64,000 nucleotides of DNA. Source: Candidatus Kaiserbacteria bacterium (lineage in GTDB: Bacteria > Patescibacteriota > Minisyncoccia > Phycocordibacterales > UBA2100). Below are positions 10,379 through 54,387 of this stretch, piece after piece. The stretch covers positions 730,274-794,273 of the forward strand of contig CP066682.1 of assembly GCA_016432285.1 (NCBI GenBank), given 5' to 3'. Both the position numbers and the translations under genes were made by a program. Within the stretch, counting starts at the first letter, position 1. Every line of letters begins with the position of its first letter. The notes under the pieces are model-generated. The model was not told the DNA's origin and did not search any database. It saw only the letters and a list, made by a program, of their open reading frames with translations.

Positions 10379-11596
10379 ATGTCAGACAAGGACGCGCTCC
10401 CCGACCACCGACGCCTCGGGCAGGAACTCGACCTCTTCGTCTTTTCGGATCTCGTGGGAAGTGGTCTCCCGCTCTGGACTCCGCGTGGCACGCTCTTGAG
10501 AAATCTGCTCGACGACTACGTGTGGGAGATGCGCAAGGCCCGCGGGTACGAAAAAGTCGAGATCCCGCACATCACCAAGAAGGAGCTCTACGAAACGAGT
10601 GGCCACTGGGACAAATTTAAGGACGATCTCTTCCGCATCACGACCCGCGAGGGCCACGAGTTTGCGATGAAGCCGATGAACTGCCCGCATCACACGCAGA
10701 TCTACGCCCGGAGGCCGTGGAGTTACCGAGAGATTCCGCAGCGCTACGCCAACAGCACCATGTGCTACCGCGACGAACAGTCGGGAGAGCTGAACGGCCT
10801 CTCGCGCGTTCGTGCCTTTACCCAGGACGATGCGCACGTTTTCTGCCGCGAACCCCAAGCGAAAGAGGAGTTTCTCAAGATTTGGGACATCATTGAGGAG
10901 TTCTATGGAACATTTGGTTTCAATCTCAAGATCCGCCTCTCCCTTCATGATCCAAAGGAACCGGACAAATATCTGGGAGACAAGAAGCGCTGGACAGCGG
11001 CGGAGCGGACGCTTACGGACATTGCAAAGGAAAGAGGCGTCGAATCCTCAATGGGAGTGGGCGAGGCAGCCTTCTACGGACCGAAAGTCGACTTTATGGC
11101 GGAAGACAGTCTCGGGCGGGAGTGGCAGGTGGCGACGATCCAACTCGATCTCAACATGCCGGAGCGCTTCGATCTCACGTGTGTGAACGAAAAAGGCGAG
11201 AAAGAGCGGGTCGTGATGATCCACGCGGCGATCATGGGATCGATCGAGCGCTTCCTTTCGATACTGCTGGAGCACCTCGACGGCAAACTCCCCACGTGGC
11301 TCTCCCCGGTACAGGTAGCAGTGCTCCCAGTCTCAGAAAGACACGCCCCGTACGCAGCGCAAATCCTCGAAGGGCTGCAACAGGCCGGGATTCGCGCGGA
11401 AATCAACGCCGACGACCCGCTGGGCAAGCGCATCCGGGAATCTAAAGTAAAAAAGATCCCGTACACGATCGTCGTCGGCGACGAAGAAATGAGCGCGAAG
11501 ACCGCCACACTCGAAGGCCGTACCGGCAAACTGGGCGTTCTTCCGATCGCGGATATTGTTTCAAAACTGGAAGAAGAAATACGAAATCGAGCCTAA
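10379..11596 (+). CDS. thrS: Threonyl-tRNA synthetase, catalytic plus anticodon-binding domains only (N-terminal TGS/editing domains absent)
   Basis: A class II aaRS core with ThrRS-specific zinc-site residues (KPMNCPHH...; motif 2 MCYRDEQSGELNGLSRVRAFTQDDAHVFC; motif 3 GSIERF) and a C-terminal anticodon-binding domain. Only 405 aa, against about 640 for canonical bacterial ThrRS. Confidence 0.85.
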   Translation: MSDKDALPDHRRLGQELDLFVFSDLVGSGLPLWTPRGTLLRNLLDDYVWEMRKARGYEKVEIPHITKKELYETSGHWDKFKDDLFRITTREGHEFAMKPMNCPHHTQIYARRPWSYREIPQRYANSTMCYRDEQSGELNGLSRVRAFTQDDAHVFCREPQAKEEFLKIWDIIEEFYGTFGFNLKIRLSLHDPKEPDKYLGDKKRWTAAERTLTDIAKERGVESSMGVGEAAFYGPKVDFMAEDSLGREWQVATIQLDLNMPERFDLTCVNEKGEKERVVMIHAAIMGSIERFLSILLEHLDGKLPTWLSPVQVAVLPVSERHAPYAAQILEGLQQAGIRAEINADDPLGKRIRESKVKKIPYTIVVGDEEMSAKTATLEGRTGKLGVLPIADIVSKLEEEIRNRA

Positions 11597-11602
11597 ACAA
11601 AA

Positions 11603-11633
11603 ACCCCGCCTAAAGGCGGGGTTTTTGTTTCTA
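11603..11633. terminator. Bidirectional rho-independent terminator
   Basis: aaaaccccgcc-taa-aggcggggtttttgttt, with an A-tract before the stem and a T-tract after it, lying between the convergent thrS and the 11673..13385 gene. Confidence 0.8.
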
Positions 11634-11672
11634 CTTTGGAGCGTTGGGGACGGCGGTCCGCCAGCTGGCGGA

Positions 11673-13385
11673 TTAGCTGCGCGCGATCACGATGCGCGGA
11701 GCGGCGCCGTCTTCCGGGCGAACGAAGCTCATCGCGTCTTTCGGTGCTTCGACAAAGAAGCGGGGTGCCTCTTCGCGAACCGGGAGGTTTGCGAGGCTAG
11801 CCGAACGAGCGATTGCCGGAGCCACTTTCTTTCCAAAGAGTGCCGGAGCTGCGACGGAGCCCGAGGACTGTGCCACCGGGGAGCGCTTCGGAGTGGCGAC
11901 CGCGAGCTTCGGAAAACCGAGACCCATGTTCGGGATGTAGTAGAGCGCGAGGTAGGCGCCGGCTGCCGCGAAGACAAGGAGCGAGCCGTAGAAGGCAGCG
12001 TTGCCCAAAAGCCCTGCGTCGAATCCGGTGTACGGAATCTGCGAGAGCGAGACCGAGGGACCGGCGACGTTGACCGCGACGTTGCAGGTGCGCGTGCCGC
12101 CTTGGCCCTGCACCGTGAGCACGTAGTTGGTCGAGACGTTGGGGCGCACCGTCAGAGAGCCGTTCGGTGAGACGTTGCCGATGCCGTCGGAGAGCCACGC
12201 CGAGTACGCGCCGTAGCTGGTCCACGAGAGCACCGTCGCCTGACCGTTTTGGATGTACGACTGCGAGGTCGTGATGATGCAGTAGAGGCCCTGCTGCGGA
12301 TACACCGGCGTTTGCGGGTAGACCGGGTACTGCGGATAAACGTACTGCACCGGGTACTGGATCGGGGTCTGATAGACCGGCGTTACTGTCGAGACGTTGG
12401 TGTTGCAGCTGCCGCCTGTGCACGTGTTGGTGTTGATGTTCGTGTTGGTGTTCGTGTTGACGATGTTGGTGCTCGGCGTCGGGAAGTAGACCGGAGGCTG
12501 TGGCTGCGGACGCGGAGGCTGTGGATAGACCGGAGGATAGCTCGGCGGCTGCGGCCGGATGACCGGCGGAGTCGTGTAGCTCGGCGGATAGCTCACCGAA
12601 CGCGGAGCCGAGTAGCTCGGAGCCGAGACGCGGAACGGCGCTGCGGCGGAAGCGTACTGCGGGTTCGAGTAGTTCTGCATCGAGTACCGCGTACCGAATT
12701 CATCAACATAGGTGTCGTAGATGCCGTACTCACTGTAGAGACCGTAAATATCGTACGGAGAAGAGTCACCGAAAAGCGCGCCTGTTCCATCACCAAAGAG
12801 TGCGCCGGAACCATCGCCGAAGTACGGATTGGAGCCGTCGCCAAAGAGACTGCCGGCACCATCGCCGAAGTACGAGCCAAGGCCATCGCCGTAGAAGTTA
12901 CCGAGGCCATCACCGAAGTACGAACCGGAGCCGTCCCCGAAGTACGAACTGAGACCATCGCCAAAGTACGAGCCGGAGCCATCGCCGAAGTACGGATCGG
13001 ATCCGTCGCCAAAGAGAGAGCCTGAGCCATCGCCATAGTAATAGCCGGAGCCGTCGCCGTAGATTGAACCGGAGCCGTCATCGAAGTAGGCGCCCCCTCC
13101 GTCGCCGTAATAGTAGCTTGCGCCATCACCGTAGAGGTTGCCAGCACCGTCTCCAAAGTAGAAACCACTCCCGTCATCATAGACAGAGCCGCCGCCGTCG
13201 CCGTAGTAGTAGCTTGCGCCATCACCGTAGAGGTTGCCGACACCATCACCAAAGAAACTTCCAAGTTCGTCGCCGCCGTAGGTATCGGCCGCCTCAGCGA
13301 CGCCAAAACTGCCCGCAAAAACGAGTGCGAGAGCGATGAGCCCGCCAAGAAATACGTTTGCATTTACACTGGATGCGGTTTTCAT
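11673..13385 (-). CDS. Secreted, C-terminally anchored protein with about 25 tandem octapeptide (F/Y)GDGxGx(Y/F/L) repeats
   Basis: Signal peptide MKTASSVNANVFLGGLIALALVFAGSFGVAEA. Residues about 40-240 are FGDGSGSY/FGDGLGNF/YGDGGGSV repeats, which show as a 24-nt DNA period from 12700 to 13300. These are followed by a Pro/Tyr/Gln-rich linker, an NTNTNINTNT tract, a beta-rich domain, an IPYTG motif, then a hydrophobic segment and a basic tail. Confidence 0.7.
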   Translation of the reverse strand: MKTASSVNANVFLGGLIALALVFAGSFGVAEAADTYGGDELGSFFGDGVGNLYGDGASYYYGDGGGSVYDDGSGFYFGDGAGNLYGDGASYYYGDGGGAYFDDGSGSIYGDGSGYYYGDGSGSLFGDGSDPYFGDGSGSYFGDGLSSYFGDGSGSYFGDGLGNFYGDGLGSYFGDGAGSLFGDGSNPYFGDGSGALFGDGTGALFGDSSPYDIYGLYSEYGIYDTYVDEFGTRYSMQNYSNPQYASAAAPFRVSAPSYSAPRSVSYPPSYTTPPVIRPQPPSYPPVYPQPPRPQPQPPVYFPTPSTNIVNTNTNTNINTNTCTGGSCNTNVSTVTPVYQTPIQYPVQYVYPQYPVYPQTPVYPQQGLYCIITTSQSYIQNGQATVLSWTSYGAYSAWLSDGIGNVSPNGSLTVRPNVSTNYVLTVQGQGGTRTCNVAVNVAGPSVSLSQIPYTGFDAGLLGNAAFYGSLLVFAAAGAYLALYYIPNMGLGFPKLAVATPKRSPVAQSSGSVAAPALFGKKVAPAIARSASLANLPVREEAPRFFVEAPKDAMSFVRPEDGAAPRIVIARS

Positions 13386-13537
13386 AATTATGTATGACGA
13401 CGTTTGCTAATTGCTTCAAACTACTACGACTTGTAATGCAGCTATTATATAACCCAAAAAAGGGTATGTCAAGTCCGAAGAATTGGCTGCGAGGCGCGCT
13501 GTTGGCGGGCCTCGCAACCGAAAACGCTCGATCTGGA

Positions 13538-14904: not shown

Positions 14905-15936
14905 TCAGTTGCAGACGCCCATGTTATTGGGGGCGATGCTGCAACCTTCCCGTGATGGCGGCTGAGGCTGTTGCACCGGAGCGGGCGGAGCAGGAGGCTG
15001 GATTACCGGCGATTGGACTGCCGGTGCTACGGGCGGAGGAGCTTCTTCCGACGGCTTGACTACCGGAGGCGAAGTCGGTTGCTCGAGCACAGGTGGCTTC
15101 TGCACAGGAACTTGCGGCTCCGGTGCAAGCTGCGTAGGCTTTTCCGTCTTGACCATTGGTGGTGCCGGTTGATCCGGCTTCACCTCCGCAGGCTTCTCCA
15201 CCGGTGCCGGTGGCAACACGGCCGGCTTCTCGATGGGAGCCGGAACAGGATCGGGCGGACCCTTCTCCCCCGCCCGCTCGGCCGGAGGCATCTGTACGTC
15301 CACCCCCGGCAGCTTGAGGCTCTTGAGGTGCGTCGCGACACGCTCCTTCACGAGATCGACGTCGGCGCGCTTGAACTCAATCACGCCAGTGCCGAGAAAG
15401 ACCGCGAGCACGAGCAGCACACCGACAACGGCACCCAGAAACATTTTGAGCGTGCTGCCGGTCGGCATATCGAGCGCCTCCGGCGAATTCGCCGGAGCCG
15501 TACCCCACCCCGCTCTCGCGGCGATACGCTTCAAGGTGTGCAACTGGTTGAAGCCGAGATCCCAGATGACCCACGCCGCAATCAGGCTGATCAGGATTTG
15601 ATCGTGCATCAGCGCCCAGAGATTGCTCCATGGAATCGGGTTTTCCCCAATGTATTTATTCCATGTCGGCAGCACGCGGTACGCCGCGTACAGCGATCCG
15701 CCGAGATCCGCGAGCCAGAACCACCAGTTGGCGGGTGCGAGCCGCGCGGAGAGGCGGTTGAAGTAGACGGCCGCGCCGAGTGCCACCCAACCGAGAATAT
15801 CGAGTGCGACCATACCGAGAATCGGAAGATCGATGATCGTCTTCTTCTCGATGAAGTAGATGGGCGTGATGTAGCCGATCACGTAGCTCGTGAAAATTGC
15901 GAGCGAAAGCAGCGCGAGTCCAAAGATGTAACGCAT
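14905..15936 (-). CDS. Polytopic membrane protein with a Pro-rich C-terminal repeat region
   Basis: Start MRYIFGLALLSLAIF at the ATG 15934-15936. At least five hydrophobic helices. The C-terminus carries PAPIEKPAVLPPAPVEKPAEVKPDQPAPP...PPVVKPSEEAPPPVAPAVQSP, then CSIAPNNMGVCN. Confidence 0.55.
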   Translation of the reverse strand: MRYIFGLALLSLAIFTSYVIGYITPIYFIEKKTIIDLPILGMVALDILGWVALGAAVYFNRLSARLAPANWWFWLADLGGSLYAAYRVLPTWNKYIGENPIPWSNLWALMHDQILISLIAAWVIWDLGFNQLHTLKRIAARAGWGTAPANSPEALDMPTGSTLKMFLGAVVGVLLVLAVFLGTGVIEFKRADVDLVKERVATHLKSLKLPGVDVQMPPAERAGEKGPPDPVPAPIEKPAVLPPAPVEKPAEVKPDQPAPPMVKTEKPTQLAPEPQVPVQKPPVLEQPTSPPVVKPSEEAPPPVAPAVQSPVIQPPAPPAPVQQPQPPSREGCSIAPNNMGVCN

Positions 15937-16098
15937 GGCGTTGTCCTTTCCACGATGAGAGGAGGGTTTGATTTCAGAGCCTGGAGACTGCCCCAGGAGC
16001 CGGGTACAGCAGTACGTCAAAATCGCTTACGCGTCAATGAAAAGAAGACCGGCGGCAACGAGGGTTGCCGCCGGCTATTTTGAGCCTCGTCAGCGTTT

Positions 16099-16794: not shown

Positions 16795-17175
16795 TCAGTA
16801 TCCGCCGGGACGCATCAGCAGCGGGGGCCGTCCGTCGAGAGGCTGTAGCACGAATCCCTCGAACTGGAGATAGGTGCCCGTCCGCCTGCTGCGCGCCCAC
16901 GCTTCGTAGGTTTCGATGGAACCCCCGCCGTTGTTTCCGTATCCGTTATGGTACGGATCGCGGTAACCGCCGCCGTATTGCGGCTGGTAGCCGCCGTACG
17001 ATTTACCGGGATAACCCCGGCGACCATACGGTGCCGGAGGCGGCGGATACGGTGAATGATCGGGTCCGCAGACGCCTCCCTGGTATGGGGAGCACGGGTG
17101 GCGGGCTTCCGCTGCCGACGGCAGCGCGAGCGCGAAACCCACCGCCACAATGGCGATGCCAAAGATCTTCTGCAT
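16795..17175 (-). CDS. Small secreted Gly/Tyr/Pro-rich protein
   Basis: Signal peptide MQKIFGIAIVAVGFALALPSAAEA, then HPCSPYQGGVCGPDHSPYPPPPAPYGRRGYPGKSYGGYQPQYGGGYRDPYHNGYGNNGGG, which is low-complexity. Confidence 0.55.
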   Translation of the reverse strand: MQKIFGIAIVAVGFALALPSAAEARHPCSPYQGGVCGPDHSPYPPPPAPYGRRGYPGKSYGGYQPQYGGGYRDPYHNGYGNNGGGSIETYEAWARSRRTGTYLQFEGFVLQPLDGRPPLLMRPGGY

Positions 17176-17300: not shown

Positions 17301-17771
17301 TTAGCGGCCGACCGGCACCGCGTAGCCGATGTCGATCGGACGGCCGATTTCGACAGCGTACCCGAGATCGATCGCGTGTCCGATTTCCACGCCGTACCCG
17401 ATCGTGATTGGACGACCCACGTTGACGCCATAACCAATCGGCACCGCGTATCCCAAGGTGATCGGACGGCCCACCGGCACGGGGTAGCCGAGCGTAATCG
17501 GACGGCCCGTCGGCACTGGATAGCCGGTCGGTACGGGAGAGCCCGTCGGATACGGGCGCCCGACGGAGGCGGGCGAGCCGGTGTAGCCGGGAGAGCCGTA
17601 TGAGCTCGGCGAAGCGTACGCCGACGGATATGCGTAGCCCGCGGAATAAGCGTAGGCAGAAGGGTACGCGTACGCGGAGTCGTACGAAGCGTACGACGGA
17701 TACGCCTGCGCGCTCGCGCTCCCGATGCTGACGGCAAAGAAAGCGATTGTGATGAGAAGAATTTTTTTCAT
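17301..17771 (-). CDS. Secreted repetitive protein (Tyr/Ala/Ser-rich, then GRPIT(L/I)GY(A/P)VPVG repeats)
   Basis: Signal peptide MKKILLITIAFFAVSIGSASAQA. Then AYPSYASYDSAYAYPSAYAYSAGYAYPSAYASPSSYGSPGY. Then six or seven 13-aa repeats GRPITLGYPVPVG, GRPITLGYAVPIG, GRPITIGYGVEIG, GRPIDIGYAVPVG. Confidence 0.6.
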   Translation of the reverse strand: MKKILLITIAFFAVSIGSASAQAYPSYASYDSAYAYPSAYAYSAGYAYPSAYASPSSYGSPGYTGSPASVGRPYPTGSPVPTGYPVPTGRPITLGYPVPVGRPITLGYAVPIGYGVNVGRPITIGYGVEIGHAIDLGYAVEIGRPIDIGYAVPVGR

Positions 17772-17773
17772 AG

Positions 17774-18436
17774 TTAGATTTCCGCCACGAAGTCGGCAGT
17801 CAGGACGAAGCGCGCCGTCTCACCCGTCAGCGTGTCGCACGTAACGAGCGTGAGGCGCCTCCCCTCTTTTGCGAGACTGATCACAGAGGTTGGATCCTCC
17901 ACATCCATGCGCTCCACCGAGACGACGCTGTAGAGATACTCTCGCCCGTCGCCCGAGACGCGGATTGAATCGCCCGCCTCGAGCTCCGAGATGCGGTTGA
18001 AGGCTTTGTACATTTGGTTGCGCACGACGGCGACACGCGAAGAGTGCCCGAAGATGAGCACGTTGCCGCTCTCTCCGAGAAGCGCCGAGTCCACGTAGCG
18101 GATCGGACCCGCTTTGAGGTTGTCGTACAGGACCTCAATGTCGCGGCTCTCGATGTTCTGCACGGGCAGATCAAGGTCGATCTCGGGGATCACGATCCGC
18201 TCCGGCTTCACTCCCGGCACCGGTGCCTCCTTTTGCGCGAGAATCGAAAGCGGCCCGAGCTGCGGCAGCTCCGAGAGCGTTACGCTCGCGCTGGAGCAGG
18301 TGTCGTCGATGTAGCACGGCACGAAGCCGACCGATTCGGCGGCCGAGAGCGACAAAAAGAAAATGACGATCGTCGCCGCGAGGAACGCCGCTTTAGGCGG
18401 CTTCTGAGCCGAGGAATTGCGCGATATTTCGTTCAT
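17774..18436 (-). CDS. srt: Sortase-family transpeptidase
   Basis: N-terminal TM anchor (AAFLAATIVIFFLSLSAA). The catalytic region has ...NVLIFGHSS... and the sortase TLxTC motif (RLTLVTCDT) near the C-terminus. Start M at 18436, or the alternative M at 18442. Confidence 0.75.
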   Translation of the reverse strand: MNEISRNSSAQKPPKAAFLAATIVIFFLSLSAAESVGFVPCYIDDTCSSASVTLSELPQLGPLSILAQKEAPVPGVKPERIVIPEIDLDLPVQNIESRDIEVLYDNLKAGPIRYVDSALLGESGNVLIFGHSSRVAVVRNQMYKAFNRISELEAGDSIRVSGDGREYLYSVVSVERMDVEDPTSVISLAKEGRRLTLVTCDTLTGETARFVLTADFVAEI

Positions 18437-18604
18437 ACACATTGCAATAATACCCCGTGAATGCCCATCTGTCAAGATCTCTTTGTCGGAATCGTCGCCT
18501 CTTTACACACAGGGCCTTGCCCAGAGGACTGTCCTCTGGGGTTTTCCGCTTTGGGGTATTTAAATGGAACCGAGAGGCTTGACAAAGCAAAAATATGTAG
18601 TAGT

Positions 18605-19663
18605 ATGGCGCCACCTATGGCTGATACCAACGGCGAAACTCGCCCCAGCATTTTTGCGAATATCCTTGCGATTGTCGGATTCATCATCCTGATCGTTGTG
18701 GTTATTTGGGGCCTCATCAATCTTGCCTCGATTTCTCGGGGCTGGCTCTCTTCCCTTTTTGGCGGAAGCCGTGGCGCCGCGATCGAAGTGCGGGCTCCCG
18801 CGAGCACGACCTCCGGCACGCCCTTCACCGTCTCGTGGACATACGAGGAGAGCGATGAGGGCACGTACGCACTTTTGTATCAGTGCCAGCCGGGAATTCG
18901 TTTGCAGGTTGCTCCGTCGCAAAACGGCATCCCCTGTGGCGCCGCCTTCAATGTTGGGAGCTCCGAGAAACAAGTTTCCGTGATTCCGATCTTGAGCGGC
19001 CAGAGCACGACGAACCTCCCGATTTCGATCATCTTTTTGCCGACGGCTACCGGCACGCAGGCAGAAGGCTCAGCGACGGTTGCCGTACTTCCCGCTTCCG
19101 GTGCGACCCCAGAGCCCACGACGCCGACCCCGACGCCCTCGTCTCCTGAAACGCCGGCGCTGCCTGTCGGCCCTGCCGACCTTTCCGTTCAGATCCTTTC
19201 GGTGAGCATCGATTCCTCGGGCAACGGCACAGCCACCTTCGACATCGGTAACGTGGGACTTTCGGGATCCGGTACCTACTACTTCACGGCGCAGCTCCCG
19301 ACTCAGAGCGGCTACACCTACTCTTCGCCCGCGCAAAGCTCGCTCTCCCCCGGCTCGCACGTCGTGAACACGCTTCGCTTCAGTGCAGGCACGGGTGGAG
19401 TCTTCAGCGTGACCGTCGATCCTTCGAATGCGGTCCAGGAGTCCAACGAGGGCAACAACTTCGCCTCGCAAAATGCGAGTGCGCAGTACTACAACTACAA
19501 CAACTCCTACAACTACAATTACTCGCAGACCGCGGGCTACCCGTACACGTATAATCAGTATCAGTACTCGTATCAGGACTACAACGCGTACAACCAGTAT
19601 CCGTACAACTACAATTACAACTATCAATACCCGTACCAAACCTCCTACCCGTACGCATACTAG
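18605..19663 (+). CDS. Membrane-anchored cell-surface protein with CARDB-like beta-sandwich and a Tyr/Asn-rich tail
   Basis: ATG at 18605. N-terminal TM (IFANILAIVGFIILIVVVIWGLI). A Pro/Thr linker (PEPTTPTPTPSSPETPALP). A domain ending ...SVTVDPSNAVQESNEGNNFAS, an E-x-NE-x-NN motif typical of CARDB. The C-terminus is YYNYNNSYNYNYSQTAGYPYTYNQYQYSYQDYNAYNQYPYNYNYNYQYPYQTSYPYAY. Confidence 0.6.
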   Translation: MAPPMADTNGETRPSIFANILAIVGFIILIVVVIWGLINLASISRGWLSSLFGGSRGAAIEVRAPASTTSGTPFTVSWTYEESDEGTYALLYQCQPGIRLQVAPSQNGIPCGAAFNVGSSEKQVSVIPILSGQSTTNLPISIIFLPTATGTQAEGSATVAVLPASGATPEPTTPTPTPSSPETPALPVGPADLSVQILSVSIDSSGNGTATFDIGNVGLSGSGTYYFTAQLPTQSGYTYSSPAQSSLSPGSHVVNTLRFSAGTGGVFSVTVDPSNAVQESNEGNNFASQNASAQYYNYNNSYNYNYSQTAGYPYTYNQYQYSYQDYNAYNQYPYNYNYNYQYPYQTSYPYAY

Positions 19664-46840: not shown

Positions 46841-47380
46841 TCAGAATTTGAACAGAACGGTGCCGATCATCTCCGAGGGCTGGATTGTGCCCCAGACCCG
46901 GCTGTCTTCACTTTGCGCGCGGTTGTCTCCCATGAGGAAATAATCTTCAGGACCCAGCTTCATTTCAAAATCCGGGCCGTTCCCCGCCTTTTCCCCTTCT
47001 TCCCATTTCTCAATGTTCGCCCCTTTCTCCTCTGCTCCCCCTTCCTCCCATTTTCCCCCTTTTCCCCTTTCTGCTGTCACCGATCCGTTCGCAATGCGGA
47101 TCGTTTCGTTCGGCAGTCCGATTACGCGCTTGAGGATGATCGGGTGCTGCGGATTACGCGGATCGCGGAACACCACCGGCGAGCCGCGGAAAAGCCCGAT
47201 AAGCCGCGGCGAGATCTTTTCCACGAGCAGGTAATCACCTTCCTGAAAAGTCGGCTGCATAGAAATTCCCGTCACGATATACGGCCGTATCAGAAAAGGC
47301 AGGAGCAAAATCAGAGTTGCAACAACGGTCAAGACTGGATCCCTCCGAATTCCTGGGAGGTTTAGCCTTCCAATTTTCAT
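46841..47380 (-). CDS. lepB: Signal peptidase I
   Basis: SPase I boxes: GISMQPT (Ser nucleophile), KRVIGLPNETI (Lys general base box) and GDNRAQSEDSRVWG. It has an unusual Gly/Glu/Lys-rich insertion (GKGGKWEEGGAEEKGANIEKWEEGEKAG). The ATG at 47378-47380 overlaps the RAYT3 stop (ATGA), and the first about 10 codons are REP-derived. Confidence 0.8.
   Translation of the reverse strand: MKIGRLNLPGIRRDPVLTVVATLILLLPFLIRPYIVTGISMQPTFQEGDYLLVEKISPRLIGLFRGSPVVFRDPRNPQHPIILKRVIGLPNETIRIANGSVTAERGKGGKWEEGGAEEKGANIEKWEEGEKAGNGPDFEMKLGPEDYFLMGDNRAQSEDSRVWGTIQPSEMIGTVLFKF
47352..47373. repeat. REP (family 3) copy at the RAYT3/lepB junction
   Basis: cctgggaggtttagccttccaa with arms gggagg/ccttcc. It lies within the first codons of lepB. 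Confidence 0.8.
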
Positions 47381-48036
47381 ACGCCGACATCTTTGTATCG
47401 TAGCCAATAATCCACATGATCCTGAACTTCCCTAGCGCTCGATAGGTACCCGGGGAAAGCTCGCGGAGAAGTAATTACGTGACGGTTGTTGATATATTCT
47501 CCCAGGCTCGAATACTGATACTCGCTTACATGTCTCTGTAGTTTCCCAAAGTCGCGTGCTCCGAATTTCTTCCAATTTGGATCTTTCAATTTGGCTGGAT
47601 TTAGATGAATATAGGAAAATAAATATTTAGCATACGCATCACCCTCCACGTGCGAGGCCTTAAACGTCCCCTGAAAAAGCGCGCCACTTCGCTCATGTTT
47701 TTCATTGAAATACATCGTATACGCAGTCTGTAGTCTCTGCATAAATTTCGAGATACCGCCGTCGACCAGCGGTGTCAGATACAGATGAAAATGATTGGGC
47801 ATCAAACAATACGCGCCTATTGCCACTAAAGAACTGGAAGGTTTAGCCTCCCAGATCCGGCTCGAGGTTTTAGAAGAGAATAGAAAATCGATTCTTTTGT
47901 TTTCTCTATCATTGAGCAGGAAAAGGTACACCAGAAATCTTTTGTACTCCGCTGGCGACATGAACACTCGGCGTTTATCAACGCCTCTATTGTAAATGTG
48001 ATAGAACTCGCCTTCTGCAAAGGTGATGCGTCTCAT
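47377..48036 (-). CDS. REP-associated tyrosine transposase (RAYT), copy 3, with a REP-derived in-frame insert
   Basis: MRRITFAEGEFYHIYNRGVDKRRVF...GAYCLMPNHFHLYLTP (HuH)...SEYQYSSLGEY (Tyr). The internal REP at 47834-47854 encodes ...RIWEAKPSSS... Its start ATG overlaps the stop of the giant upstream ORF, and its stop overlaps the lepB ATG. Confidence 0.85.
   Translation of the reverse strand: MRRITFAEGEFYHIYNRGVDKRRVFMSPAEYKRFLVYLFLLNDRENKRIDFLFSSKTSSRIWEAKPSSSLVAIGAYCLMPNHFHLYLTPLVDGGISKFMQRLQTAYTMYFNEKHERSGALFQGTFKASHVEGDAYAKYLFSYIHLNPAKLKDPNWKKFGARDFGKLQRHVSEYQYSSLGEYINNRHVITSPRAFPGYLSSAREVQDHVDYWLRYKDVGV
47834..47854. repeat. REP (family 3) copy embedded in-frame within the RAYT3 coding sequence
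   Basis: ctggaaggtttagcctcccag. The reading frame is maintained across it. It sits in the same protein loop as the embedded REP in RAYT2. Confidence 0.8.
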
Positions 48037-51000
48037 AGAGTGGGCGGATCGCGGCGCTCACTGGAAGGTTTAGCCTTCCAACGGGAGCGGGGCGGAGCGT
48101 CTACTGGAAGGTTTAGCCTTCCAGTGGGGGGCTTCCCTCTTGGGACGGGGAGGATGAAGAAGGACATGCCGATGAGGAAGGCGATGGCTTGGACGAAAGA
48201 GGAGACGACGGAGGCGGCGGAAGCGGCGGAGTATTTGAAGGGCTGCTCGGCAAATGCCATGTACACGTACGTCCCCCCGCTCGCATTTGCACCAGCTGCC
48301 GTGTTTCGCTGCTTGAACCCATTGGCGAGAAAATCCATATCGTTGCAGGACGCGGTTTCCGCTGCGTTGGACTCCAATCCAAAACACGGACTGATCGGAT
48401 TACTCGTATCTCGCGCCGCATCGTATGTATTCCAAGAGTATCCGAGCGTGTCTGTCCGTTTGATCACTACGTACTTAGGTTTGAACCCCGTGTACACAAA
48501 CGGCCCATCGGCCGAGCCGTTGCCGGTGTAGGAGCCGAAGTCGGAGAAGCCGGAGATTTCATCAAAAAGATAGGCGACATAGTTGTTGCCGCTGGTATTC
48601 ACATCAGCATTGGTACCGAGCGAGAAGACGGATGCGGTCGGCGCGGTGTCGTTCCAGTAGGTGGCATCGTCGGCGGTCGCGGCTGTGCCGTTCATCAAGA
48701 GGTAATCGGTCTCCGGCGCTGAAGTATTGGCAGCGTGGTAGACCGCCCAGTCGTTGGTCGCGCCGCGGTCTTTTACGATCATAAATTCTGGTGCAGAAGA
48801 GAGCGAATGGCTGATTGTGCGATTGGCACCGGTGCCGGCGTACGGCACGATATCGAATCCGCTCGTCGGATCTTCCTTCCAAAGCCACGAGATGTAGTTG
48901 TTGCCGCTTGTGTTGAAGAGCGAATTTGTGCCGAGCGTGAAGCCGTTTTCCAAGAATGCGGTGAGTGCCGATGCCGAGCTCGTCTCAATCGTCGTCGCGT
49001 TTGAAGAAAGATACGGAAACGTACTGCGTAGCGAATCGAAGAGCCCGTGCGCATTCGCGCTCGTTCTGTCTTTTATCCATGTGAGCGTCGGCGTGAAGTC
49101 GAGCCCCGTCACCGAGAGCGCGGCCCCCGTCCCCGTGTACGTGAGCGCATCGAAGTAATCATCGGGCTGCGTAATCGTCGGCGTAGGAAGATTCGTGGTC
49201 GAGAGGGCTTTGAAATCCGTCGGTGGTGCGTATTGGAAGTACCCTCCTGCCGATGAGCGGTATGGAAGTACCGTTGCTGTTGATGTCGGCGAAGAAGACT
49301 GGCCGAAGTTGAAATTGTACGAATGAGTCTGCCCGCTGGTTTGGCCAGCACCCGCGCCAATGAAGAGCGGGCCAGTGAGACCAGTAAATGCCGAGTTCGT
49401 GCCCGCTGCCGGATCACCGCTCGCCTGCCACGTGCCATTTTTTGAAAACCAAATCTTTCCGTTATCCAAATCGAGCGCAACGCCAATAACGTCGTTGGTC
49501 GTAAAGGTGTCGCCATAGGCGCTGTCACTGCTGCTATTTCGCTTGTTTCCACCACCTGCGTACGTGTACGCGAGATAATTGCTCTCGAGAATACAGTTTT
49601 GAACGGATGACGCGCCGATGAGATATCCTCCGCTAACGCCCGTAGTTCCGGTCGGGACGATCTCGGCGTACCATTTGCCCGATGTGGGTCCGATGGAAGA
49701 GCGACCGAATGTATAACAAGCCGGCGACGCGGGAAAGCTGTCTATCGTTGCCGTGAGGTTTCCTTGAGCAGCCGTCAGATCACTCGACGAATTTGCCAGT
49801 ATGTTTAGAGTCGCAGACCCATTCGTCGGGGAATCCTTGACGTTGTCGGTCGCGTCGAGGTTGTTGGCCGTCCAGTCATTGTTGTTGCTACTCGTATCGT
49901 CGCCGGGGCTGGTGGAGGTGAGCGGCAGGTGGAATCCATTAGTGCCATACGTCCCCGAATATGTCTTCGGTCGCCAGTAGCCCGATGCGTCGTATTCGCC
50001 GAAGTCGGAGGGGGTGAGTGCTTGTCCGTCGATGGCGTAGAAATCCGCAAGGTAGCCGTCGTAGTAAGAGGTCCCGCTATGCTGTTTGCCGAAAGCGTGT
50101 ATGACATTGTCGAGAACGTTCACGTCCGAGTTTTGCGTCATTGATGTATAGCCGGAGCCCGACCACGTTTGTGCAACGCCATTGACCCAAAGCCGGATTC
50201 TATCCGCGGCAGTTGCCTGCGTACTGTCTACGGTAAAGACAATGTGGAGCCACGCACCTGGATCGCGAAACTTCGCGTTTGTTGTATAGCTCCAGGTCTC
50301 ATTACCTGCATAGCCATACAACGTATCGCTGGTCGTAAACCGGAGGCCGTCTGCCGAGTATGCCGACCAGTTGATAAGAAATTGCTCGGTCCCCAGATTT
50401 GCCCGCTTGACCCAAAAGCTGAACGTCGCTGTCTTGCCCGCACCCGTCCCCGCAGATGAGAACGTTTTGGTTAGACTCGCACTATCGTCATCATTGAAAC
50501 GCGTGCTCGATGCGATGGTGAGGTTGTACGCTTGCGCGGATTGCTGGAAGGGCTGTTCGGCGAATGCGGCGTAGACGTACGTGGCACCACTGGCATTGTA
50601 GTTGGCATCCGTCGCACGCGGCTTGAATCCGTTTGAGAGAAAATCCATCTGCCTACTTGATCCGTCGTCTGCGTTTGTCAGATTGGCGTAGATCATGATG
50701 TCGCGGAGATTACCGTCGCCAGCAGCGCTACGTCGGTTGTCCCAGATGTACCAGCCGTTCGTTGAGGCACTGTCGCTTCTTTTTACAAGCAAGAACGCCG
50801 GCTTGAATCCCGTATACACGAACGGCCCATCGCTTGAGCCGTTGCCGGTGTAGGAGCCAAAAGATGAGTAGCCGGTGGTAGAGGCGAAGAGGTAGGCGAC
50901 GTAGTTGTTGCCGCTTGTATTTACATCCGCGTTGGTGCCGAGCGAGAAGACGGATGCGGTCGGAGCCGTATCGTTCCAATATGTAGCGTCGTCGGCAGTT

Positions 51001-53891
51001 GCCGCAGTCGAATTGAGAAGCAGGTAATCGGTCTTTGGGTCAGAGGTGTTTGCGGTGTGGTACACCGCCCAGTCGTTGGTGGCACCGCGATCTTTGATGA
51101 TCATAAAGTCGGGGGCGACACCGAGCGAGTGGCTCACGGTGCGATTGGCTCCCGTGCCCGTGTAATTCACGATGTCGAAGCGCGAGGTCGTGTCTTCTTT
51201 CCAGTTCCAGCTCACATAATTGTTGCCGCTCGTGTTGAAGAGCGCATTGGTGCCGAGGGTAAATCCATTCGAGAGGAAGCTCGTGAGCGTGGTCGAGGCA
51301 CCGCCGGTCTCCGCCGTCGTCGCATTGGACGAGAGGTACGGGAAGACGGAGCGGATGGCATCGAAGAGCCCGTGCGCGTTCGCGCTCGTGCGGTCTTTAA
51401 TCCAGACGAGGGAGGGGGTGAAGCCGAAGGATACGCCGGTCGAGACGTAGGTAATTTTGATGATGCCTTGCGCCCCCGCGCCGCCATTGCCCGTGGTCGT
51501 TCCTCCATATCCGCCCGAGCCGCCGCCGCCGCCGTAACTGCCCCCGTTGCCGCCGGCCGAACCGGTCGGCTCTTGCCCCGAACCGCCGGCGCCACCGCCA
51601 CCAGAGCCATGAGTGGCGTCCCACTCGGTACCGTTACCTCCGTTGCCGCCCGCCGCCCCCGCCACACCAGTGCCTCCGGCACCGCCTAAACCATTACCGC
51701 CCTGCCCGCCACTGGTGCCTGCAACTCCAGCACCAAGACCTGCAGTGCTAACGCCATCGGCACCCGCACCACTTGGGCCGCCGGCGCCACCACCACCCTG
51801 CCCGGCATAGTTGTTGGAGATATAGCCGCCTGTCCCGCCATTATATTTCGTACTCCCTACTGAAGCCGATGCAAGCCCGCCGGCTCCGGAACCCGTCAAG
51901 TAAACTGCACCATTGCCTGCCTTTGCACACACCGAAACAGTGTCGGCACAAGTGTTTGCTGACCCCGATGTCCGATTAAAGAATGTATCTGTTCCGGCAC
52001 TACCGTTCGACCCGTTGGTCGCGCCGCCTGCACCTCCTGCACCGACCTGAAAAGTGACGTTCCCGCCGGGAGTAAGAGAAAGATTTGATACTTTTGAATA
52101 AGCTCCGCCGCCGCCGCCGCCGTGGTCGCCATCGGCAGTCCCATCACGAACGCCGCCGCCGCCGCCGCCGATTACCTCAATAGTGTTGCTCGCATTGCCC
52201 CAATCGCTCGGCACCTGCCAAGTTTTGGCCGTCGTGTCCGTGAGATATACCGTGACGGTTTGCCCGGCAGTAGATGCGGCTGCCCGCGATACAGACTGTG
52301 CGGCGCCGCTACCCGTGTACGCCACCGCGTCAAAATAATTCTTCGGCACCGTGACCGCCGGCTCCGGAAGATTGGCAGTAGAAATTGCTTTGAACCCCGT
52401 CGGAGGCGTGTACATAAAGTAGCCGCCGGCTGCCGAGTCGTAGGTAAGTGTCGTTGCGGTGGAGGTCGGATTTTTGGATTGCCCGAAAATCAGATAGCTT
52501 TCCGTACTTCTGCTTACTCCAGCATCCATTCCTACTACCGGAAAAATCGGCGTGGTGGTGGAGATGTTGGAGAAGGCGGCATTTGTGCCCGCCACCGGAT
52601 CGGAAGATTCAAACCATCCGCTTTCGTCGCGGACGAAGAGTTTTCCGGCATCTGCATCGATCGCAACACCTAGGGTCAGATCGAGAGAACACGTGGAGTA
52701 CGTCGGCCCATACGCCGTGAGCGTCGTGTTGTAGATGGTGCACGATTTACCGCCGGTACACGAGCCCGAATTGGCGGGTAGCCATCCCCAGCTATTCGTA
52801 GTTTGCCCTACATATTCATCTTTACTTGCGTTGGTATTTGCTACTCCTACTTCAACATTGCAAATTCCCGACAAGTTCGCACTGCGAGCTTCAAAATACC
52901 ACTTGCCGCTGGTGATACCCATCGTTGCAAAATCGGTGGCGTTGGTACCGGTCCGGCTTGAATACAGATTGCCTTGAGAGTACGTCGAGATGGAAGGCTT
53001 GTTGAGCACGTTCAGGGTCGGATACATATTGGTCGGCGTATCAACCTCTTGATCCGTCGCGTTGATATTGTTGGCGGTCCAGTCGTTGTTTTGGCCGCTC
53101 ACGTCGTTACCAAGATCCGAGCCGCTCGCGAAATCAAGCTTAAAGCCGTTGGTGCCGTAGGTTCCGGTGTAGCTTTTGGGTCGCCAGTAGCCGTTGGCGT
53201 CCGTCTCGCCAAACGACGATGGCGTCAGCGCCTGGCCGTCGATCAGATAGACATCGGAAAGGTAACCATCAAAGTATGTTGAGTTTGAGTTACCGAATCG
53301 CCCTATTGCATGTGGATCCGTGCCATTTACTCTCGTGTCGACGTTTTGCGACGGGTCGTTTGCATCGCGAGCGATTCGCTGGCCATTCACATAAAATATG
53401 ACCCTGTCACCTGCGGTAGCTGCTGTCGTGTCCACAGCGACTACCACGTGCATCCATTGTGAAGGGTCTCGAAATACCGCGGTACTTTGTGTAGTCGGCG
53501 CGTTTGAACTGCTTTCTCGGCGTTGGAATTGGAGCTTATCGGAGTTGAAAGATATCGACGTGTGATGATCACCCGCCGTTGGTTCAGCGCTAAAGAGGAT
53601 ACCGTCTGTGAGATTCGCCCGCTTCACCCATGCACTCCACGTCCACGTCTTTTTATTTCCTGCGCTACTGGGCGTGCGCGACAGTCGAGCACTGTCGTCG
53701 TCGTTGAAGCGCGCGGAATTCGATATTGAATACGCGGCTTTGGCTTCCGGAAGCTGGAGGAGCACAAATTGCGTCGCAAATATCGCCAAGGAGATGAGAA
53801 GCGCGGTCGCGATACGGTGATGCCAGAGGTATCCCCCGATTGCGGGAATATATTTAGAGTTTAAAGATTTAAATGTTGGAAGCGGGAGCAT
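48033..53891 (-). CDS. Giant membrane-anchored surface protein (1952 aa) with two LamG-like (concanavalin-A-like lectin) domains in a duplicated ~800-aa super-repeat and a Gly-rich core
   Basis: N-terminal anchor (IATALLISLAIFATQFVLLQL). Two LamG-like jelly-roll signatures (TWTWSAWVKRANL...WMHVVVAVD...VIFYVNGQ and TATFSFWVKRANL...WLHIVFTVD...IRLWVNGV). A duplicated block ending NYVAYLF...FGSYTGNGS(A/S)DGPFVYTGFKP...YVYMAFAEQPF. A central tract of about 250 aa that is more than 50% Gly (GGGGGVRDGTADGDHGGGGGGAYS...GGNGGSYGGGGGSGGYGG). The last about 40 codons are REP-derived. Confidence 0.7.
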   Translation of the reverse strand: MLPLPTFKSLNSKYIPAIGGYLWHHRIATALLISLAIFATQFVLLQLPEAKAAYSISNSARFNDDDSARLSRTPSSAGNKKTWTWSAWVKRANLTDGILFSAEPTAGDHHTSISFNSDKLQFQRRESSSNAPTTQSTAVFRDPSQWMHVVVAVDTTAATAGDRVIFYVNGQRIARDANDPSQNVDTRVNGTDPHAIGRFGNSNSTYFDGYLSDVYLIDGQALTPSSFGETDANGYWRPKSYTGTYGTNGFKLDFASGSDLGNDVSGQNNDWTANNINATDQEVDTPTNMYPTLNVLNKPSISTYSQGNLYSSRTGTNATDFATMGITSGKWYFEARSANLSGICNVEVGVANTNASKDEYVGQTTNSWGWLPANSGSCTGGKSCTIYNTTLTAYGPTYSTCSLDLTLGVAIDADAGKLFVRDESGWFESSDPVAGTNAAFSNISTTTPIFPVVGMDAGVSRSTESYLIFGQSKNPTSTATTLTYDSAAGGYFMYTPPTGFKAISTANLPEPAVTVPKNYFDAVAYTGSGAAQSVSRAAASTAGQTVTVYLTDTTAKTWQVPSDWGNASNTIEVIGGGGGGVRDGTADGDHGGGGGGAYSKVSNLSLTPGGNVTFQVGAGGAGGATNGSNGSAGTDTFFNRTSGSANTCADTVSVCAKAGNGAVYLTGSGAGGLASASVGSTKYNGGTGGYISNNYAGQGGGGAGGPSGAGADGVSTAGLGAGVAGTSGGQGGNGLGGAGGTGVAGAAGGNGGNGTEWDATHGSGGGGAGGSGQEPTGSAGGNGGSYGGGGGSGGYGGTTTGNGGAGAQGIIKITYVSTGVSFGFTPSLVWIKDRTSANAHGLFDAIRSVFPYLSSNATTAETGGASTTLTSFLSNGFTLGTNALFNTSGNNYVSWNWKEDTTSRFDIVNYTGTGANRTVSHSLGVAPDFMIIKDRGATNDWAVYHTANTSDPKTDYLLLNSTAATADDATYWNDTAPTASVFSLGTNADVNTSGNNYVAYLFASTTGYSSFGSYTGNGSSDGPFVYTGFKPAFLLVKRSDSASTNGWYIWDNRRSAAGDGNLRDIMIYANLTNADDGSSRQMDFLSNGFKPRATDANYNASGATYVYAAFAEQPFQQSAQAYNLTIASSTRFNDDDSASLTKTFSSAGTGAGKTATFSFWVKRANLGTEQFLINWSAYSADGLRFTTSDTLYGYAGNETWSYTTNAKFRDPGAWLHIVFTVDSTQATAADRIRLWVNGVAQTWSGSGYTSMTQNSDVNVLDNVIHAFGKQHSGTSYYDGYLADFYAIDGQALTPSDFGEYDASGYWRPKTYSGTYGTNGFHLPLTSTSPGDDTSSNNNDWTANNLDATDNVKDSPTNGSATLNILANSSSDLTAAQGNLTATIDSFPASPACYTFGRSSIGPTSGKWYAEIVPTGTTGVSGGYLIGASSVQNCILESNYLAYTYAGGGNKRNSSSDSAYGDTFTTNDVIGVALDLDNGKIWFSKNGTWQASGDPAAGTNSAFTGLTGPLFIGAGAGQTSGQTHSYNFNFGQSSSPTSTATVLPYRSSAGGYFQYAPPTDFKALSTTNLPTPTITQPDDYFDALTYTGTGAALSVTGLDFTPTLTWIKDRTSANAHGLFDSLRSTFPYLSSNATTIETSSASALTAFLENGFTLGTNSLFNTSGNNYISWLWKEDPTSGFDIVPYAGTGANRTISHSLSSAPEFMIVKDRGATNDWAVYHAANTSAPETDYLLMNGTAATADDATYWNDTAPTASVFSLGTNADVNTSGNNYVAYLFDEISGFSDFGSYTGNGSADGPFVYTGFKPKYVVIKRTDTLGYSWNTYDAARDTSNPISPCFGLESNAAETASCNDMDFLANGFKQRNTAAGANASGGTYVYMAFAEQPFKYSAASAASVVSSFVQAIAFLIGMSFFILPVPRGKPPTGRLNLPVDAPPRSRWKAKPSSERRDPPTL
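48061..48124. repeat. Two REP (family 3) copies at the 3' end of the giant gene
   Basis: ctggaaggtttagccttcca (48061-48080) and ctggaaggtttagccttccag (48104-48124). The giant ORF reads through both (...GRLNLPV... and ...WKAKPSS...) before stopping at 48033. Confidence 0.85.
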
Positions 53892-53892
53892 A

Positions 53893-54384
53893 TCAGGATT
53901 TTATATCACCTCCCGGTGTGTAGAGGTGTGGATGAATCTTTGAAAGCTCCTTGCGTGCATTGCGCATAAACTCTTGCGCTTCTCGCTCGTCCTTGCTCAA
54001 TTCCCGTTTGCGTTGCAAACCGCTGTGCGGAGATGATTTGAGTGCCCTGATGAACGACGCGGTAAGTCTCGATGCCTGCTCTGCCAAATCATTTAAATAT
54101 TTAAATGTTTGAATATTCAAATACCCTATGTCATTTGCGATGTAGAGCTGTGCCCGCACCTCGCCGCACGATGCTTTTGCAATATAGAGGTAATTCAAAA
54201 ACCCCTCGCGTGTTCCCGACTCAAATCCTTCCGCGATGTTTGATACGACCGATACCAAAGCTCGCTGTATTTGATCGGTGAATCCTCTATCGTGACAACC
54301 ACGAAACACCTTGTAGACTTCGCGTGCTAGTTCTCGCCCCTTTTTCCAGGCCAGCAGCTCTTCAAATCTGTGCACAGTCGCCAT
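53893..54384 (-). CDS. Four-helix-bundle protein (TIGR02436-like; the family often called '23S rRNA intervening sequence protein')
   Basis: A 163-aa protein with the characteristic pattern ...FTDQIQRALVSVVSNIAEGFESGTREGFLNYLYIAKASCGEVRAQLYIANDIGYL... Visibly lower GC than its neighbours, and wedged 1 nt from the next gene's start. Confidence 0.6.
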   Translation of the reverse strand: MATVHRFEELLAWKKGRELAREVYKVFRGCHDRGFTDQIQRALVSVVSNIAEGFESGTREGFLNYLYIAKASCGEVRAQLYIANDIGYLNIQTFKYLNDLAEQASRLTASFIRALKSSPHSGLQRKRELSKDEREAQEFMRNARKELSKIHPHLYTPGGDIKS

Positions 54385-54387
54385 GCA

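Follow-up and report, generated by a model that had tools for sequence, protein, structure and literature searches.

A tandem octapeptide array kept by selection on its peptide in a probable envelope protein of Candidatus Kaiserbacteria

What kind of protein carries a long run of octapeptides built from an aromatic pair and a Gly-Asp-Gly core, and what might such a run do? The question is raised by a gene on the minus strand of a 64,000-nucleotide (nt) stretch of the 859-kb Candidatus Kaiserbacteria contig CP066682.1 (assembly GCA_016432285.1, positions 730,274 to 794,273 of the forward strand), referred to here as the window. The 570-amino-acid (aa) product of this gene is identical to NCBI QQG37821.1, the hypothetical protein HYS26_04330 of Candidatus Kaiserbacteria. 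A first-pass annotation, made from the DNA alone, had described about 25 tandem octapeptides in a secreted protein. The gene is conserved and single-copy in Kaiserbacteria and in related Paceibacteria, and its product is probably a strongly expressed envelope protein. The reading favoured here, with moderate confidence, is that the array is a polyanionic, aromatic and multivalent module, for binding or as a coat, that tops an anchored Pro-rich stalk and has a repeat unit tuned in each lineage.

An octapeptide array kept at the level of the peptide

The array is composed of 21 in-register octapeptides of the form hydrophobic-[F/Y]-G-D-G-x-G-x. Together with one degenerate unit that precedes them this makes 21-22 units, fewer than the 25 first estimated. 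The G-D-[GS] core occurs 21 times, and all 20 core-to-core spacings are exactly 8 residues, with no insertion or deletion (indel) across 168 aa. Position 4 is Asp in 21 of 21 units, and position 2 is aromatic in 21 of 21 (Phe in 13, Tyr in 8). Position 1 is Tyr in 11 units, Leu in 6, Phe in 2, and Val or Ile in the others. Gly occupies position 3 in 19 units (Asp in 2), position 5 in 20 (Ser in 1) and position 7 in 15 of 21. Position 6 varies among small residues, and position 8 is variable. Gly makes up 33% of the array, Asp 14%, Tyr 14%, Ser 13% and Phe 9.5%; 24 residues are acidic and none is basic.

The DNA repeats with the same register. Tandem Repeats Finder (TRF) reports a 24-nt period with 11.8 copies and 66% matches, as well as the 48-, 72- and 96-nt multiples, and a separate repeat search of the array DNA likewise gave a spacing of 24 nt. 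A degenerate DNA pattern for two consecutive units has 2 matches in the window, against 0.00 expected from shuffled sequences. The array is real and not a product of chance. The 24-nt period claimed in the first-pass annotation is borne out by all three results. The high DNA periodicity that it also described is real but degenerate, as the units have a mean nucleotide identity of 61% and no exact direct repeat exceeds 32 nt. A 32-aa (96-nt) super-repeat, present twice, accounts for the first 8 units (13075-13254, 84% identity by TRF). Overlapping ORFs (open reading frames) in other frames, such as 12249-13025 on the plus strand and 12593-13363 on the minus strand, were rejected as by-products of GC-rich periodic DNA; homologues exist only for the 570-aa frame.

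Codon choice within the array separates selection on the peptide from repetition of the DNA. For the same residue in different units, codon identity is 0.426 for Gly, against 0.419 expected from codon usage, and 0.479 for Asp, against 0.572 expected. Five orthologous arrays were tested in the same way. Their units are 75-93% identical in aa sequence, and codon identity is 0.46-0.62 in four of them, the exception being the three-unit array at locus L002 (0.84). Exact repeats in the orthologous arrays are 11-47 nt long. Since synonymous codons are at the random level, most of the array is old, and the motif and its 8-residue register have been kept by purifying selection. Within a lineage, selection maintains the array peptide, not the DNA. 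A conserved peptide with randomised codons makes it unlikely that the array is a passive by-product of slippage or answers to a need for composition alone. Recent DNA expansion is rejected as the origin of most of the array for its random-level codon identity, with the 96-nt super-repeat excepted.

Copy-number variation had been thought likely from the periodicity of the DNA. That expectation is weakened by the 61% unit identity and the randomised synonymous sites. Whole-unit indels are present in three related proteins. Close variants of these proteins (>=90% identity) differ by +26 and -52 aa in the first, by -12 aa in the second and by -10 aa, in the Pro-rich part, in the third; the variants come from metagenome assemblies, where repeats can be mis-assembled. 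The databases hold no second allele of the window gene, whose 90% cluster has one member.

Searching with the full-length protein gave 104 homologues, none from outside Kaiserbacteria, Paceibacterota or Parcubacteria. The best non-self matches (E 4e-84 to 1e-60) cover the C-terminal 40-80% of the query. Of the 104, 73 have three or more repeat copies in an N-terminal array, with periods mostly of 7-13 aa and units such as YFDDSYGS, GWDNFASD, FYYDGSDQP, LGYVDTWGDN and YDEYFTPYGNDT; WGDTTYNDG and GSYDPYA are units shared within subclades. Across homologues, the median array fraction is 0.24 for aromatic, 0.19 for acidic and 0 for basic residues, with about one [FYW]G?[DE] per unit. The window protein has the highest copy number, 21 against a maximum of ~14 in the other homologues. 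Read across these sequences, the octapeptide is one lineage's version of a repeat module that is present in nearly all orthologues. A profile of the family matched 13,020 representative proteins, many of them 400-560-aa proteins matched end to end. Most profile matches stem from the immunoglobulin (Ig)-like domain, which is tandemly repeated in thousands of proteins, giant ones among them. Many of these giant proteins likewise end with [ILV]PYTG and then a helix.

The repeat and the anchor module are undescribed, while the overall protein design is familiar among bacterial surface proteins. Literature searches gave nothing on this protein family or its repeat motif. The whole 570-aa protein has no match in Pfam or NCBIfam at E<=1, and neither the array alone nor the C-terminal 225 aa matches a repeat, Pfam or NCBIfam model at E<=10. 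A search of PDB sequences with the array gave nothing meaningful. The first-pass annotation had not recognised the repeat family, and these searches agree with it. An array-alone search of 5.8 billion proteins returned nothing, the source protein included, as a composition correction evidently suppressed the score. The two-octapeptide DNA pattern was also run against 185,579 species genomes. The one match, on a Haloferula contig, is antisense to a real 799-aa gene and is attributed to chance; the collection evidently lacks the window's own genome, and the same pattern does find the window.

The sole match outside the family in the full-length search is P0104, an uncharacterised OmpA-family protein (E 1.4e-4). 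It has N-[YF]-G-D-G-S-G-T-Y every 16-17 residues and shares a [YF]GDGSG[ST][YF] core with the octapeptide array. The P0104 unit has double the length and includes an additional VSIxN segment that looks like a strand; the protein, which comes from an unrelated context, has a C-terminal OmpA peptidoglycan-binding domain. Pfam and PDB sequence searches with the P0104 repeat gave no meaningful match. It may be a longer-period relative of the octapeptide's turn motif.

Envelope anchoring and the sortase gene cluster

The homologues have a common architecture, read from their sequences. A signal peptide, the tandem array, a Tyr-rich segment, a Pro-rich linker and an N/T/Cys tract are followed by a Pro/Tyr/Gln linker, the Ig-like domain, SLSQIPYTGFD, a hydrophobic helix and a tail of ~90 aa that ends ...APRIVIxR. 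The corresponding parts of the window protein are given in Table 1. The Pro/Tyr/Gln linkers and the N/T tract noted at first pass are both present, the latter with a C-x4-C loop.

Table 1. Features of the surface-protein gene and of the nearby sortase gene, in window coordinates
Feature	Position	Strand	Residues	Remarks
Sortase gene	17774..18475	-		PF04203, E 7.8e-21; head of same-strand envelope cluster
Sigma-70-type promoter	13444..13472	-		TTGACA-17 nt-TATAAT; 12/12 consensus match, 59 nt upstream of ATG
Coding sequence, 570-aa surface protein	11673..13385	-	1-570	Exactly one ORF; stop codon 11673-11675
Signal-peptide-like N-terminus	13290..13385	-	1-32	Hydrophobic core, then VAEA/AD (slash, candidate cleavage); read from sequence
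Degenerate first repeat unit	13257..13280	-	36-43	YGGDELGS; precedes array
Array of 21 in-register octapeptides	12753..13256	-	44-211	
Tyr-rich post-array segment	12642..12752	-	212-248	Holds YVDEFGTRYS
Pro-rich linker 1	12471..12641	-	249-305	PPSYPPVYPQPPRPQPQPP...; AlphaFold2 pLDDT below 50
N/T-rich tract with C-x4-C loop	12384..12470	-	306-334	TNIVNTNTNTNINTNTCTGGSCNTNVSTV
Pro/Tyr/Gln linker 2	12291..12383	-	335-365	PVQYVYPQYPVYPQTPVYPQQ
Ig-like beta-sandwich domain	12060..12290	-	366-442	Cys369 and Cys434 conserved
IPYTG motif, candidate sortase cleavage site	12024..12038	-	450-454	Within SLSQIPYTGFD
Transmembrane helix	11937..12014	-	458-483	AlphaFold2 helix
Basic, probably cytoplasmic tail	11676..11936	-	484-570	87 aa; ends in conserved ...KDxM...APRIVIxRS hairpin

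AlphaFold2 (AF2) places a helix at aa 9-24 within the signal-peptide-like N-terminus, and A32 is kept in at least 90% of homologues in the alignment. The earlier description as a secreted protein holds for this N-terminus, but the membrane helix would anchor the protein, which is thus not freely secreted. The motif YVDEFGTRYS recurs in relatives as YTDEYGVKYSY, and a strict regular expression finds it in 8 of the 104 homologues, so it is kept only in closer relatives. TRF detects 6-, 12- and 18-nt periods at 12423-12460 in the N/T tract, which has the counterpart NTCxGNSCNTNVNNIDNS in several relatives. With the family alignment, AF2 predicts the Ig-like sandwich at aa 367-441 with a pLDDT (predicted local distance difference test) of ~96 and a C-terminal hairpin of strands 551-555 and 564-568 with a pLDDT of ~85. 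Foldseek matches to the Ig-like domain are limited to generic Ig, PKD and SoxY folds.

The first-pass annotation had seen a possible sortase-like signal in IPYTG. In a 94-sequence alignment, L447, I450, P451, Y452, T453 and G454 are invariant, and [IV]PYTG is carried by 104 of 105 search matches. IPYTG is the only [LIVA][PA]x[TS][GA] motif in the window with a hydrophobic stretch after it. The candidate sortase cleavage region reads ...SLSQIPYTGFDAG..., the peptide VSLSQIPYTGFDAGL spans the candidate cleavage point after Thr453, and the AF2 membrane helix begins 4 residues past Gly454. The ectodomain has 33 Asp and Glu against 7 Lys and Arg, and the tail 12 Lys and Arg against 6 Asp and Glu. 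An acidic ectodomain and a basic tail fit a topology with the N-terminus outside and the C-terminus inside.

A sortase gene lies 4.4 kb upstream of the surface-protein gene on the same strand. Its product scores 41.6 against TIGR01076, above the cutoff of 39.35, and passes no class-specific model; the sequence motifs FGHS, TLVTCD and ARF, with His, Cys and Arg, are visible. The gene order is pheT, gyrB, a divergent CARDB protein, the sortase, small secreted or membrane ORFs, the surface-protein gene, convergent thrS and dnaE. This order is kept at all six other loci examined (7/7 with the window), where the proteins are 34-56% identical over aligned regions. An orthologous sortase is upstream of the orthologous gene in 6 of these 6 loci, and two of their clusters also have an L,D-transpeptidase gene. 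The IPYTG protein is the last gene of every cluster; at L008, a second IPYTG protein (11426-12622 on the plus strand) comes directly downstream. This second protein lacks an N-terminal array, carries three Ig-like domains and has a shorter tail, with 58 aa past the motif.

Several observations count against a functional link between the sortase and this protein. The motif is followed by 116 residues (family median 111), and the PRIVIxR-like end is conserved in 80 of 104 homologues. The LPXTG-anchor models TIGR01167 and PF00746 have no match at E<=1, or at E<=10 with the C-terminal 225 aa. The housekeeping neighbours are also syntenic, so inherited gene order, and not function, could explain why the sortase gene is linked. 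The surface-protein gene also has its own promoter. On balance, sortase processing at IPYTG is somewhat likely: the motif is invariant, a membrane helix follows and a sortase gene is nearby, but a long sequence follows the motif and no LPXTG model matches. For the same reasons, the protein was not filed as a canonical LPXTG anchor, even though motif, helix and sortase are present. A tail of such length and conservation (aa 484-570, 11676-11936) is unexpected if a sortase merely discards it.

The closest designs are those of sortase-anchored Gram-positive adhesins, the MSCRAMM (microbial surface components recognizing adhesive matrix molecules) or Sdr type and the serine-rich-repeat type. The shared order is signal peptide, functional or repeat region, Pro-rich wall-spanning segment, [LI]PxTG and hydrophobic helix. 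As with these adhesins, a sortase gene is in the cluster of the Kaiserbacteria gene, and copy number varies among close variants of related Kaiserbacteria-family proteins. Unlike in LPXTG proteins, the Kaiserbacteria motif is an invariant IPYTGFD. Where LPXTG proteins end in a short Arg/Lys stub, the Kaiserbacteria protein continues into its 87-aa basic tail with the terminal beta-hairpin. Its repeats are at the distal tip and not in the stalk as in the MSCRAMM/Sdr type. The aromatic-Gly-Asp-Gly chemistry is unlike SD or Ser-rich repeats, and the host is a bacterium of the Candidate Phyla Radiation (CPR).

The sigma-70-type promoter in Table 1 has counterparts at the six other loci (L001-L003 and L006-L008; 9700-10000), where 11-12 of 12 consensus positions match within 300 nt upstream of the orthologues. 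This suggests, at the level of sequence, that the surface-protein gene is strongly and independently transcribed from its own promoter.

Other genes of the cluster were noted in passing. Directly downstream of the sortase, a 156-aa ORF (17301-17771, minus strand) encodes a signal peptide and a Tyr-rich N-terminal part, and then a strict 6-residue period (GRPITLGYPVPVGRPITLGYAVPIGYGVNV...) like that of hexapeptide left-handed beta-helix repeats, with weak LpxD matches (E 0.02). Its homologues come after the sortase in L001, L002, L003 and L007. The divergent CARDB-domain protein (18461-19663, plus strand) begins with a membrane helix, and its C-terminal tail is rich in Tyr, Asn and Gln and finishes in ...YPYAY; the protein adjoins the sortase at all loci, and the C-termini end Y-x-Y. 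BLAST detected no homologue in the other clusters for a 126-aa secreted Gly/Tyr/Pro-rich protein (16795-17175, minus strand) or for a 371-aa protein that spans the membrane several times and has a long, Pro-rich C-terminal part (14905-16020, minus strand). Both ORFs are unusual. Next to the surface-protein gene, the threonyl-tRNA synthetase (10379-11596, plus strand) is just 405 aa long, with the class II core and the anticodon-binding domain and without the N-terminal editing/TGS region; its orthologues have 578-581 aa in L003 and L006 and are short in L001, L002 and L007. Further along the window (47377-61158, minus strand) are two giant ORFs of 1952 aa (DUF7483, Laminin_G_3 and SPRY) and 2256 aa (only a weak HTH_17 match). 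A 23S-rRNA-intervening-sequence-type protein is encoded between them, and an IS200-like Y1 transposase gene adjoins.

Possible folds and roles of the array

If an anchored stalk does present the array as a binding or coat module, the parts of the protein would play the following roles. The signal peptide would export the protein, and the Ig-like domain, IPYTG, the membrane helix and the basic cytoplasmic tail would hold it in the envelope. The sortase would likely cleave between the Thr and Gly of IPYTG, and the product would be attached to the wall. The Pro-rich linkers would form a wall-spanning stalk that shows the array, as the outermost N-terminal part, at the cell surface. There, the array would bind a host cell, a polysaccharide or a mineral, or form an outer coat. 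Each 8-residue unit would probably supply a short strand, made by its aromatic or hydrophobic pair, and then a Gly-Asp-Gly-x-Gly turn; the aligned Asp residues could bind divalent cations.

This reading has to be weighed against the following. The function is deduced throughout, from a family that is known here through sequences and models. AF2 with the family alignment gives the array and linkers a pLDDT of ~40 with no secondary structure, from an alignment that is necessarily scrambled across the array region. From the single sequence (aa 33-243), AF2 models the aromatic pair of nearly all units as part of a strand 3-4 residues long; confidence is low (pLDDT 55-62, predicted template modelling score 0.41), and 2 of 5 models average below 40. 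The Foldseek neighbours of this model are all beta-helices (tapirins, LpxD/GlmU, HpmA and ice-binding proteins), and none is significant, the best having an E of 0.57. The unit length of 7-13 aa in orthologues is hard to square with a single conserved fold. The first-pass annotation had called for a structure prediction of a beta-roll or beta-helix and had named a disordered prediction and a close match to a known repeat family as evidence to the contrary. One prediction is disordered, the other has weakly periodic strands with no significant fold match, and no known repeat family matches.

The favoured binding or coat module could exist in either of two physical states, a repetitive beta structure stabilised by cations or a brush that always stays disordered. 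The two have about the same likelihood, and each can be put forward only tentatively. In the first, modelled as a cation-dependent beta-roll or beta-solenoid, two or three octapeptides would form a coil, and the GDGxG turns would bind Ca2+ through an Asp ladder. One aromatic residue of each unit would fill the core, and the other would belong to an exposed aromatic ladder, for example for polysaccharide binding. Such a fold is consistent with an 8-residue register that stays exact through 21 units while synonymous sites are randomised, with the invariant Asp, the near-invariant Gly and the strictly aromatic position 2, and with the strand on every aromatic pair in the single-sequence model; the beta-helix neighbours of that model point the same way, though they are insignificant. 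It is made doubtful by the low pLDDT of that model, on which the five models disagree, and by the unstructured array of the alignment-based model. HemolysinCabind and other repeat hidden Markov models (HMMs) have no match at E<=10, the period is 8 and not 9, the residue order is unlike GGxGxDxUx, each unit has a single acidic residue, and the orthologue units vary in length.

Known repeats place this fold in context. Like the repeats of the repeats-in-toxin (RTX) family (PF00353), the array has short tandem units that are rich in Gly and Asp and include a hydrophobic position, and it belongs to an acidic, probably extracellular protein; Ca2+-dependent folding is conceivable. The unit differs from that of RTX in its pair of neighbouring aromatic or hydrophobic residues and its lone Asp, and the array is N-terminal behind a Sec-type signal, whereas RTX repeats are C-terminal with a type I secretion signal. 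Membership in RTX/HemolysinCabind is ruled out by the period, the motif order and the lack of an HMM match; the first-pass annotation had rightly set the array apart from the Ca-binding beta-roll by period and motif, as the spacing is 8 and the order hydrophobic-[FY]-G-D-G-x-G-x. The repeats of ice-nucleation proteins (PF00818) have an 8-residue sub-period in 16- and 48-residue units and are presumed to form a beta-solenoid. The array is like them in its octapeptide sub-period, its Gly-aromatic-Gly-Ser flavour and its higher-order 16-, 24- and 32-residue periodicity. It differs in that its units have no TxT or SxL water-ordering motifs and an invariant Asp. Ice-nucleation membership was rejected for the lack of a Pfam match and the absence of TxT/SxL; the protein architecture and host lineage also differ.

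In the second state, the array would be a permanently disordered acidic and aromatic brush, an extended low-complexity polyanion that forms a hydrated coat, sticky or repellent, and for which composition alone would matter. The AF2 model from the alignment points this way, as do the 33% Gly and the fact that composition alone (aromatic, acidic and small residues, zero basic) is shared across lineages. A compositional requirement does not predict that the unit peptide and its exact length are kept within lineages while codons are randomised, or that 168 residues have zero indels. FUS-type [G/S]Y[G/S] domains, resilin-like repeats and synthetic binding sites dominated by Tyr, Ser, Gly and Asp come to mind as analogues. 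Like Tyr/Gly/Ser-rich low-complexity domains, the array is dominated by Gly, Tyr/Phe, Ser and Asp and would offer multivalent aromatics. Unlike FUS-type and resilin-like domains, it is probably extracellular, strictly periodic and strongly acidic, with the exact unit under selection, and there is no homology.

A more specific and rather unlikely proposal joins two parts, and its grade applies to both together. In the first, the array would fold, probably with divalent cations, into an undescribed short-period beta-solenoid whose coils take up 16 or 24 residues each. Asp residues would run as a ladder along the turns, with a second, strictly aromatic ladder on the outside, making a host- or polysaccharide-binding organ of these ultrasmall bacteria whose coil is re-invented in each lineage with a different unit. 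In the second, the invariant IPYTGFD, the membrane helix and the long conserved tail would constitute a CPR-specific sorting system, in which the fragment left by sortase cleavage keeps a membrane or cytoplasmic function of its own.

A self-assembling matrix or fibre is improbable. The Tyr/Phe-rich repeats would stack between molecules, by cross-beta structure or dityrosine cross-links, into a sheath or cell aggregates, with the cluster's other Tyr-rich secreted proteins taking part. Tyr-rich secreted or anchored neighbours (17301-17771, 16795-17175 and the C-terminus of 18461-19663), the periodic strand propensity and the strong promoter are consistent with this. However, 24 Asp and Glu and no basic residues would disfavour stacking without counter-ions, and Pfam and NCBIfam show no similarity to the curli, Fap or chaplin families.

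Least of all is the repeat to be seen as a passive spacer or a DNA-slippage by-product without function of its own: slippage can create tandem arrays, and whole-unit indels do occur in close variants of related proteins, but the array is at the N-terminal tip with nothing beyond it to space out, its aa sequence is conserved by purifying selection while codons are randomised, and it is retained in at least 73 of 104 orthologues.

Meaning for CPR surface biology

We know of no cultured member of the Parcubacteria, Kaiserbacteria included, and of no account of their attachment to hosts or surfaces. Work on CPR attachment has so far centred on type IV pili in Saccharibacteria. The gene described here has the traits expected of a host- or environment-facing determinant: it is core, syntenic and apparently strongly promoted, and it belongs to a conserved sortase cluster. 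The array, as the outermost part, appears to be rebuilt in every lineage and yet is held constant by selection within each. Nothing in the findings contradicts the expectation for a repetitive surface protein.

Should the array prove to be no more than a disordered acidic coat, the protein would be an ordinary low-complexity surface protein. The octapeptide also offers a compact natural test case for solenoid formation by an 8-residue Gly/Asp/aromatic unit. As a core, syntenic envelope gene with a lineage-specific tip and a sortase cluster, this locus provides CPR surface biology with a concrete candidate surface determinant.

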